A program made the translations under genes and the position numbers. Shown here piece by piece: positions 11,338 through 12,044 of a stretch of 64,000 nucleotides of DNA. The stretch is from IMG/VR virus record IMGVR_UViG_2690316121_000006; one strand, 5' to 3'. The notes below the pieces were generated by a model. That model worked only from the letters and a program-made list of their open reading frames with translations, ran no database searches and had not been told where the DNA came from. Position 1 is the stretch's first letter. Each line of letters starts with the position of its first letter. This stretch comes from a virus (lineage: Duplodnaviria; Heunggongvirae; Uroviricota; Caudoviricetes).

Positions 11338-11445
11338 AAGGGCCGGATTACTGTTTCCTAAGTGCTTCAATGGCGCTAACAATACCGCCTACAACTATGG
11401 CAACAATGATAATGAGAACAATTGGATACTTATCTGCAAAATCCC
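11338..11445 (-). CDS. small hydrophobic peptide (35 aa)
   Basis: MSFWDFADKYPIVLIIIVAIVVGGIVSAIEALRKQ; start shares one nt with the upstream stop (TGATG); below the ORF-track size cutoff. Confidence 0.35.
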
Positions 11446-11609
11446 AGAAGCTCATCACTGATCCTTCGAGGCTGGTTTAAATATCGGCCATACCAATGTT
11501 ACAGCTACTGCTACCAACGCCCCGTCGGATAAAACCGACAGGATTGTGCTGGTGAAATCCACCAGCACAGATAGCACGAGAAAAACCAAAGCCAGAATTA
11601 GACGTGCTT
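11445..11609 (-). CDS. small membrane peptide (54 aa)
   Basis: MVIKARLILALVFLVLSVLVDF...; sits between the TerB-like gene and the 35-aa peptide. Confidence 0.35.
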
Positions 11610-11618
11610 TTATAACCA

Positions 11619-12044
11619 TCAGATATACTGTTCCAGTGGCAATTGAAGAGCCTGGGCAATTTTCTTCAATTGCTCCTGCTCTTCTGCCCCAATGCCATCC
11701 TGGTCAGCAATATCAATGCATAGGCACAGAACATCTACCGCATCATTAGTTCCAGACACGTCAGCCAGTTCACGTAAAGCCTGGGCATTCGCTCGGCGCG
11801 GCGAGGCTTCATATTGAGCGCGAATATTGGCGCTCATCTGGGCAATTTCACCGGAGAACGGCGCAAAGGCAGGAAGTGCTGCAATGGTTTTTTCCAATAC
11901 TGCAATTTCTTTCGCATCGCAGGTGCCGTCAGAGTATGCAATGGAATATGCGCCCCAGACAGTCGCTTCCACCGCATCACGGTTTTCCATCTTCTTGACT
12001 CCGCCAGCCGCTTTGCGGAATTTCTTTTTGAGAATGCCGAGCAT
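11619..12044 (-). CDS. TerB-like (tellurite-resistance fold) protein
   Basis: 141 aa, acidic helical protein with ...AYSDGTCDAKEIAVLEK... and ...DIADQDGIGAEEQEQL... repeats of the TerB type. Confidence 0.5.
   Translation of the reverse strand: MLGILKKKFRKAAGGVKKMENRDAVEATVWGAYSIAYSDGTCDAKEIAVLEKTIAALPAFAPFSGEIAQMSANIRAQYEASPRRANAQALRELADVSGTNDAVDVLCLCIDIADQDGIGAEEQEQLKKIAQALQLPLEQYI

Follow-up and report, generated by a model that had tools for sequence, protein, structure and literature searches.

The closest described counterpart of the locus treated here is the gene trio tciA-tciB-tciC of phage P1, which is already known and was named in the 2004 genome annotation (GenBank AF234172, Lobocka et al. 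2004). This record gives the trio a homology-based functional guess and enters TciB and TciC as accessory proteins with the same function as TciA. It also places tciABC, together with a tRNA, within an operon that starts from the P1ban promoter, with Obanab as its bivalent operator for C1. In a genome-wide P1 CRISPRi screen, tciA, tciB, tciC, trnI and ban were all nonessential, and knock-down of tciABC caused no plaque defect (PMC10695390). Transcripts of tciABC were detected during lytic infection in a P1vir transcriptome, where the genes are filed, by annotation only, under 'cell division control' (bioRxiv 10.64898/2025.12.28.696737). When 77 P1-like phage-plasmids were compared, tciABC constituted one of eight hypervariable regions and was lost from about half of the P1-like subgroup 1, and its relation to phage inhibition, in the words of that study, 'remains unclear' (PMC9603915). 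The cassette is consequently to be regarded as accessory and nonessential, and no phenotype was reported for it in the literature searched.

Other described proteins are related to TciA through the TerB domain. TerB itself is membrane-associated and found in a TerC-TerB complex (Turkovicova 2016, as cited in PMC11003894), and the ter cluster gives phage inhibition as well as colicin resistance (Whelan 1995, as cited in PMC9603915). TerB domains are also contained in the defense systems Bunzi and Shango, for which membrane surveillance has been proposed, and the co-chaperone DjlA is membrane-anchored, with a transmembrane helix and a TerB-like domain.

The window, i.e. the whole stretch of 64,000 nucleotides that was analyzed, was compared with phage records by megablast of positions 11200-12250. 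This gave identities of 99.9% to Salmonella phage SJ46 and 97.7% to phage P1 (1.05 kb), with tciA, tciB, tciC, trnI and ban as the annotated features beneath the match. Over the 8.2 kb around tciABC, P1 and the window are 98.4% identical at 94% coverage, and the order dmt, tRNA-Asn, tRNA-Thr, tciA, tciB, tciC, trnI, ban is common to both. Together with the presence of a C1 operator pair, the identity to SJ46 and P1 marks the window as a P1-like phage-plasmid. On sequence grounds, the trio is P1 tciA-tciB-tciC, situated inside the C1-repressed ban operon of a phage-plasmid of the SJ46/P1 type (Punavirus). That the genes have this identity and that they are coding is, as a joint claim, close to certain. 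The following features of the operon are relevant here, listed in the direction of transcription:

13781-13808, no strand assigned: bivalent C1 operator (Oban) at the promoter of the ban operon, which it overlaps; consensus matches, in the place homologous to P1 Obanab/P1ban
12972-13125, minus strand: tRNA-Thr(UGU) and tRNA-Asn(GUU), upstream in the ban operon; ARAGORN, Rfam and P1 annotation
12078-12197, minus strand: STnc100-like RNA element, leader directly upstream of tciA; Rfam, sub-threshold
11619-12044, minus strand: tciA, 141 aa, ATG start with GAGG 8 nt upstream; predicted cytoplasmic protein of the TerB fold
11455-11619, minus strand: tciB, 54 aa, its ATG overlapping the tciA TGA by 1 nt (TGATG); DUF3927
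11348-11455, minus strand: tciC, 35 aa from ATG, overlapping the tciB TGA by 1 nt, with AAGGA upstream
11269-11344, minus strand: tRNA with anticodon CAU (P1 trnI); ARAGORN (called Met), Rfam tRNA 64.7 bits
9623-10993, minus strand: ban, DnaB-type replicative helicase and namesake of the operon; ORF, annotated as ban in P1 and dnaB in SJ46

Much of this layout had been noticed in a sequence-only reading of the window, and its ORFs of 141 (TerB-like), 54 and 35 aa with 1-nt overlaps were all borne out, on the minus strand. The two small products, described there as hydrophobic peptides, have GRAVY values of 1.45 (TciB) and 1.21 (TciC), and the CAU tRNA and helicase gene said to come after the trio are the ones found by ARAGORN at 11269-11344 and as the ORF at 9623-10993. 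What was called a replication operon is that of P1 ban, the replicative helicase gene, with the C1 operator kept at 13781-13808. The extent given to the trio agrees with ours except at its lower limit, 11338, which falls 6 nt inside the tRNA, whereas the tciC stop codon ends at 11348. The program-made list of ORFs begins tciC one codon earlier, at a GTG, and the CAU tRNA, which AF234172 identifies as tRNA-Ile2 (CAT) with 89% identity to E. coli ileX, starts 3 nt past the tciC stop codon. Compared with the GAGG of tciA and the AAGGA of tciC, tciB has merely a weak purine run upstream. Taken together, the 1-nt stop/start overlaps and the upstream motifs form a pattern that fits translational coupling. 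The helicase assignment agrees with the Pfam DnaB and DnaB_C domains that match the ban-equivalent ORF of another of the compared loci (L013).

Genes, order, overlaps and neighbors are as in P1, and the TciA protein is identical in both. TciC of the window, in contrast, is the SJ46-type allele and differs from P1 TciC at 9 of 35 residues. Further differences lie in the leader between tRNA-Thr and tciA, annotated as upl/plp on the strand opposite to tciA in P1 and as two hypothetical ORFs on the tciA strand in SJ46, and in a 100-aa ORF that the window has between ban and the dbn-like gene.

The operator consists of two overlapping matches to the C1 consensus ATTGCTCTAATAAATTT, one at 13781-13797 with 2 mismatches and one at 13792-13808 with 0 mismatches. 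Across the window, this consensus was found 7 times versus 0.32 expected. Oban overlaps the ban promoter and places the cassette under lysogeny control. Besides tciA, the ban operon and its flanks hold only tRNAs, tciB, tciC, ban, the dbn-like gene and dmt. The STnc100-like element at 12078-12197 scored 41.9 bits versus an Rfam gathering score of 47 (E 1.2e-6).

TciA is a soluble protein of the TerB fold. It matches the Pfam TerB family (PF05099) by a modest margin, i.e. with 28.4 bits versus a gathering threshold of 24.4 (E 2.1e-6), and PHROG 632, 'tellurite resistance', with E 7e-62. A profile of the P1-type TciA family gave no meaningful match to PDB sequences, and because of this the homology to the solved KP-TerB structure (2jxu) was drawn through the TerB allele of P7 and D6. 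This allele occupies the same position as tciA, aligns with TciA along its entire length at 31% identity (E 9e-19) and matches 2jxu with E 5.3e-7; by this bridge, TciA can be recognized as a diverged but genuine member of the TerB family. An AlphaFold2 model of TciA, with 24 homologs, had a pLDDT of 85.7 and a pTM of 0.82, with six helices and, at the N-terminus, a basic tail that is disordered, and a fold search returned matches to 2h5n and 2ou3. The all-helical arrangement of a TerB-like fold is found in the model, and the assignment of this predicted fold to TciA is new in this analysis. Among the 24 homologs, two acidic DG...E motifs (D39-G40, D43 and E46; D114, D116-G117 and E122) and three cysteines (C42, C107 and C109) are invariant or nearly so. 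Charge is unevenly distributed, with a net +7 in residues 1-19 versus -11 in the remaining body, and tciA has a median pairwise dN/dS of 0.06. When the family profile was run against 1.84 billion sequences, each representing one cluster at 50% identity, 248 were retrieved at E <= 1e-3, nearly all of 140-155 aa, and the named members belong almost throughout to Enterobacterales.

KP-TerB (PDB 2jxu, PF05099, from terZABCDEF) shares with TciA the fold class and the repeated acidic DG...E motifs at a similar length (about 151 versus 141 aa), and both proteins are associated with a membrane partner, a putative one in the case of TciA. Sequence similarity between them is low, however, and the P1-type family is without a direct sequence match in the PDB. 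The cysteines C42, C107 and C109 are a feature of the P1-type clade, lacking at these positions in P7-type proteins and KP-TerB. The partners differ as well: in ter clusters these are TerC, TerD, TerE and TerZ, none of which accompanies TciA, and whereas TerC is a large integral membrane protein, the putative partner of TciA is a peptide of about 50 aa, predicted to be a hairpin. This bears on whether tciABC could truly confer resistance to tellurite, as its name implies. Family membership and the product names in databases speak for this, but no other ter gene, those of TerC, TerD and TerE included, is present in the ban operon or its flanks, the published resistant constructs all carry terC, terD and terE along with terB (PMC11003894; the 'minimal ter operon', PMC8123226), and the P1 name was explicitly given 'by homology' (AF234172). 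With these other ter genes absent, tellurite resistance as such is highly unlikely.

The two small ORFs require more caution, as ORFs this short arise by chance in the window, so that the evidence for tciB and tciC as genes is their conservation and not their presence. TciB matches Pfam DUF3927 (PF13064) over profile positions 1-53 of 53 with 101.3 bits versus 25 (E 2.7e-29), and was assigned to phrog_1470. The DUF3927 family comprises at least 752 clusters. TciB has basic residues at each end, two hydrophobic segments, and D21-F-T, S28 and D32 conserved in the homolog alignment. From these properties TciB may be pictured as a hairpin of two helices whose ends both face the cytoplasm, its two Asp residues lying about equally deep in the membrane. 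The median pairwise dN/dS of tciB is 0.32.

TciC is, from its sequence, a single-pass membrane peptide, with an acidic N-terminus carrying an FWxxxDKxP motif, one hydrophobic (transmembrane) segment and a basic C-terminus. Its one match is phrog_23152 (E 2e-26), and a scan of the three proteins against NCBIfam gave nothing useful. The two TciC alleles of P1-like elements differ exclusively by exchanges of one hydrophobic residue for another. With the 35-aa TciC as query, tblastn found identical copies only, and a diverged homolog was instead found by reading the D6 sequence: an unannotated ORF of 36 aa in the equivalent place, with an equivalent stop/start overlap and an equivalent tRNA after it. 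It shares M-x-F-W-x-x-x-D-K-x-P, the transmembrane segment and the basic tail with TciC and is identical to that of the window at 10 of 36 positions (~28%), scoring 48 versus -16 +/- 9 for shuffled sequences, a score that 0 of 2000 shuffles reach. NCBI PGAP likewise gives tciC no annotation in the listed records of RefSeq plasmids and of E. coli.

It could be argued that tciA is the sole gene and that the other two ORFs are there by chance. The region is indeed rich in short ORFs in every frame, PGAP leaves tciC out of RefSeq plasmids and genomes, and the dN/dS of tciC (0.5-0.6 between P1 alleles, on very few sites) is not clearly below 1. Against this stand, for TciB, the large Pfam family, the purifying selection and the presence in 181 of 182 loci (see below), and for TciC the hydrophobicity-conserving nature of all substitutions between the P1 alleles and the D6 homolog, which at 28% identity still has the reading frame, the overlapping start, the N-terminal motif and the transmembrane segment. 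A chance origin is therefore exceedingly improbable. The literature searched yielded no direct proof of TciB or TciC by Ribo-seq or mass spectrometry; the pairing and dN/dS of TciB and the D6 homolog of TciC argue that both peptides are very probably translated.

To see how far the arrangement extends, loci with P1-type TciA homologs (104) and with P7/D6-type TerB (78) were gathered. In 181 of these 182 loci, the TerB-like gene is overlapped at its end, by 1 or 4 nt, by the start of a DUF3927-like ORF of 44-62 aa, and the sole exception carries a frameshift. The reverse look-up, a protein search followed by contig look-ups with four abundant DUF3927 proteins from Klebsiella, E. coli, Serratia and Cronobacter as queries, found a TerB-like gene immediately upstream of the DUF3927 gene in all 13 places, in two of them frameshifted. 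Judged from this gene order, the conserved functional unit is the TerB and DUF3927 pair with its overlapping stop and start, a linkage that is new here. TciC-like ORFs were found only in the 69 P1/P7/D6-like loci, and as far as gene content indicates TciC is an add-on limited to this lineage. The module of the sequence-only reading accordingly divides in two under the locus comparison, its TerB and DUF3927 genes being conserved, whereas TciC and the tRNA/helicase context belong to the P1/P7/D6 lineage alone.

Nearly all members of the TerB-DUF3927 family come from Enterobacterales phages, prophages and phage-plasmids, and the surroundings of the pair vary. In the lambdoid prophages of three genera (E. 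coli, Klebsiella and Cronobacter), it usually lies between the antiterminator Q and the holin-endolysin genes. There, as in other phage elements of Enterobacterales, it is a homologous two-gene unit with the same 1- or 4-nt overlap, at 72-94% identity for TciA and 40-60% for TciB, but it is without TciC and is part of the late operon between Q and holin instead of the early helicase operon of P1. Full STnc100 copies adjoin these pairs in the Q-to-holin gap. In Serratia prophages the pair is found near Cro, in contigs of phage-plasmid size (~60-70 kb) near Dam/RNase H genes, and in a 37-kb element of Nissabacter among methyltransferase, tRNA and holin genes; from the literature, it is also reported on pSLy3-type phage-plasmids. 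Same-strand tRNA genes are situated at most 3 kb away in 19 out of 35 loci examined.

The lambdoid position, directly upstream of the holin and endolysin genes and downstream of Q, raises the question whether the pair is an accessory of lysis timing, i.e. whether TerB-DUF3927 tunes holin triggering, in the manner of an antiholin or as a buffer of membrane potential, and so prevents early lysis. The first downstream ORF matches holin families in 18 of 42 distinct contexts, and as a small membrane peptide with two helices, TciB would resemble many holins and antiholins. No match of TciB or TciC to holin or antiholin families was found in Pfam or PHROGs, though, the only matches there being DUF3927/phrog_1470 and phrog_23152. 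Moreover, the cassette of P1, P7 and D6 sits by the helicase in the early, C1-controlled ban operon, away from the lysis cassette, other elements have the pair near Dam/RNase H (also the pSLy3 type) or Cro, and the CRISPRi knock-down was without plaque defect (PMC10695390). Accessory genes and tRNAs also seem to settle in the Q-to-holin gap quite generally. This weakens a functional reading of the adjacency to holins, which at such an insertion hot spot may mean nothing functionally, and a role in lysis timing seems quite unlikely.

The best explanation of the locus as a whole is, in our judgment, moderately probable: P1-type tciABC would encode a membrane-anchored TerB complex of the lytic phase. 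Coupled translation would give the three Tci products in fixed proportion, and TciB, in P1-like phages with TciC, would anchor TciA at the cytoplasmic face of the inner membrane. Such a tether would reproduce in miniature the way TerB pairs with TerC in ter operons, or the DjlA arrangement of a transmembrane helix plus TerB. In TciA the DG...E motifs, and in TciB the two intramembrane Asp residues, might then serve to bind a divalent cation or to sense the state of the membrane. In P1 the complex would be produced from Pban once C1 is inactivated at the lytic switch, and in lambdoid prophages from the Q-dependent late transcript. In the infected cell, its role may finally be to stabilize the inner membrane or to guard it against pore-forming colicins, superinfecting phage or premature depolarization. 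These parts are not equally firm. A membrane-tethered TerB complex is, from the gene arrangement and the predicted protein features, fairly likely, while a specific protective or exclusion role of the complex can be put forward only tentatively.

DjlA and the TerB-domain proteins of Bunzi and Shango likewise hold a TerB-like domain at the inner membrane via transmembrane helices, in likeness to the proposed TciA-TciB complex, and have the helix together with an effector (a J domain, or ATPase/helicase partners) fused or co-encoded. In tciABC, by comparison, the anchor would be a separate peptide and an effector is not evident. A natural fusion of TciA and TciB (P0003) was also modeled, using a mixed alignment; TciB appeared in it as a single 58-residue helix, which gives no information on packing or docking. 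The alignment is imperfect, as MAFFT split the N-termini of the distant TciB sequences.

The occurrence of TerB in Bunzi and Shango, whose TerB domains are proposed to survey the membrane, opens another interpretation, in which a phage-made TerB at the membrane acts as a decoy that mimics or titrates TerB-based host surveillance (the ter 'Phi' phenotype, Shango, Bunzi) or blocks the entry of competing phages and colicins. This would be in line with the phage inhibition and colicin resistance from the ter cluster (Whelan 1995, as cited), with the near limitation of the family to Enterobacterales phages, prophages and phage-plasmids, with the hypervariability of the locus among P1-like elements (PMC9603915), as would be seen for arms-race genes, and with the exchange of one TerB allele for another (31% identity) beside a retained TciB and TciC. 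Yet the PADLOC-DB 2.0 models, those of Shango and Bunzi included, gave no match to TciA, TciB or TciC at E up to 1, and TciA is under strong purifying and not diversifying selection (dN/dS 0.06). Expression is furthermore lytic and not lysogenic, which argues against a classical exclusion that protects the lysogen. Counter-defense or exclusion by a decoy is accordingly another role to which we assign a low probability.

A combined formulation is also conceivable, in which TerB-DUF3927, with TciC where present, is a phage-specific device of the lytic cycle at the inner membrane, i.e. either a brake on holin triggering or a decoy/exclusion factor. The brake would be cation- or voltage-sensing, the decoy would be aimed at TerB-based membrane surveillance of the host, and a tellurite relic would be excluded. 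We find this formulation rather unlikely. If true, it would describe a common but overlooked phage function, given the pairing in 181 of 182 loci, the Q-to-holin site and the presence in ~3% of complete E. coli genomes, where 170 out of 5426 carry at least 80% of the tciABC cassette, mostly on plasmids.

The suggestion of a membrane stress or exclusion module in the sequence-only reading coincides with what the P1 GenBank record guesses from homology. Taken alone, the initial observation is a rediscovery of P1 genes named in 2004, with the same functional guess, and changes nothing. The comparison of loci does narrow the experimental target to TerB plus DUF3927, an obligate coupled pair that is widespread in enterobacterial prophages, expressed in the lytic phase and often placed beside the lysis cassette. 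By-products of the comparison are the obligate pairing itself, the limitation of TciC to P1/P7/D6, and the tciC genes that D6 and the listed RefSeq records leave unannotated.

One distant TerB-like relative (P0268, in locus L204) has no DUF3927 gene, and in this single case two ORFs with N-terminal transmembrane segments follow it instead.

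The TerB-like first gene of the tciABC trio, which precedes the CAU tRNA and the helicase gene ban, is not the same in all P1-like phage-plasmids. In P7 and D6, the allele, located as follows, is more canonical than P1 TciA, to which it is only 31% identical.

1920-2354 of locus L109 (P7): TerB allele of P7/D6 type
1929-2363 of locus L110 (D6): TerB allele of P7/D6 type

A Cys triad (C42/C107/C109) that is invariant in the P1-type clade is missing from this allele. The membrane peptides TciB and TciC encoded behind it are nearly unchanged compared with P1, and on sequence comparison the difference looks like a modular allele swap inside one cassette. 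The tciC homologue of D6 (NC_050154), MDFWTYIDKNPGWSLLFLLVIVYGVEQVAKNLRRRK, is found without annotation at about 1650-1768 on the minus strand, sharing bases with the tciB stop codon and preceding a CAU tRNA. Among the RefSeq records listed, for plasmids as well as E. coli genomes, tciC was likewise left unannotated by PGAP. A different peptide of 45 aa with a transmembrane segment, MIPRPSGRTEAIMSTKGWRSLVYSIVVGLVIWLLLGTWIVMFVAG, occurs at about 3570-3710 of L018, another locus with a TerB-like gene, in a 4-nt overlap with the DUF3927 stop codon; here the locus may have recruited a third small membrane peptide independently.

Two fusion proteins were found among the homologues, namely a TciA-TciB fusion (P0003, 196 aa) and a TciB-TciC fusion (P0122, 90 aa), each encoded by a single read-archive assembly. 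Both probably stem from the insertion or deletion of 1 nt where the stop and start codons overlap, and they demonstrate that single indels at junctions of the tciA/tciB/tciC type can yield fusions.

Near-identical enterobacterial TciA genes were also present in four genome-contig records labeled as a Bacillota MAG, Pseudomonas lundensis, Acinetobacter idrijaensis and Kocuria sabuli (L014, L018, L026 and L028). Three of the four genes lie on very short contigs, and contamination or mis-binning is the most likely explanation for these labels.

Upstream of tciA, the following elements are present in the window.

12078-12970, minus strand: tciA leader, the interval between tRNA-Thr and tciA
12078-12197, minus strand: sub-threshold STnc100 sRNA match (41.9 bits; gathering score 47)
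12452-12551: hairpin with 23-nt arms in the tciA leader
12189, 12450, 12683 and 12879: direct repeat TTCAYCACAACGGTAAGRGCACT
12257, 12740, 12955 and 13394: direct repeat GCCCTTACCTGTTGTG
13599-13621, minus strand: strong terminator-like hairpin followed by T8, inside the ban operon leader

The two repeats are examples of the 4-5 dispersed direct repeats of the tciA leader. In P1, this leader is annotated with the upl/plp ORFs on the strand opposite to tciA, whereas the ORFs annotated in SJ46 are on the tciA strand. A peptide, ENALTC, recurs in the plus-strand leader ORFs as a mere DNA repeat. These ORFs are possibly not genes, and the leader could be structured RNA. The terminator-like hairpin lies at roughly the annotated dicF-like region of P1, upstream of the tRNAs and tciABC. 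Transcription of the trio from Pban would require read-through or processing.

Full-length STnc100 elements (79-110 bits) were identified in the gap between the antiterminator gene Q and the holin gene of lambdoid prophages, at three loci.

2239-2451 of L008: full-length STnc100
2711-2899 of L111: full-length STnc100
3867-4070 of L016: full-length STnc100

At all three, TerB-DUF3927 pairs and phage tRNA genes directly adjoin the element. STnc100 could belong to this hot spot of accessory genes as a mobile element or as a leader RNA. In the range L007-L108, 19 out of 35 TerB-DUF3927 loci have same-strand phage tRNA genes at a distance of up to 3 kb from the TerB gene, the types being CAU, Arg-UCU/UCG, Thr-UGU, Gly-UCC, Asn-GUU and Lys-UUU. 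A block of methyltransferase, tRNAs and TerB-DUF3927 recurs in P1 and in some lambdoid and other elements. Furthermore, immediately downstream of the window's CAU tRNA is a stretch of which 61 nt recur in Stx2c phages.

Lastly, the window differs from the annotations of P1 and SJ46, with one 332-aa dbn directly after ban, in having two ORFs there.

9321-9623, minus strand: 100-aa ORF between ban and the dbn-like gene
8350-9324, minus strand: dbn-like gene, 324 aa

The start of the 100-aa ORF, which may have been inserted or may constitute an alternative 5' end, shares 1 nt with the ban stop codon.
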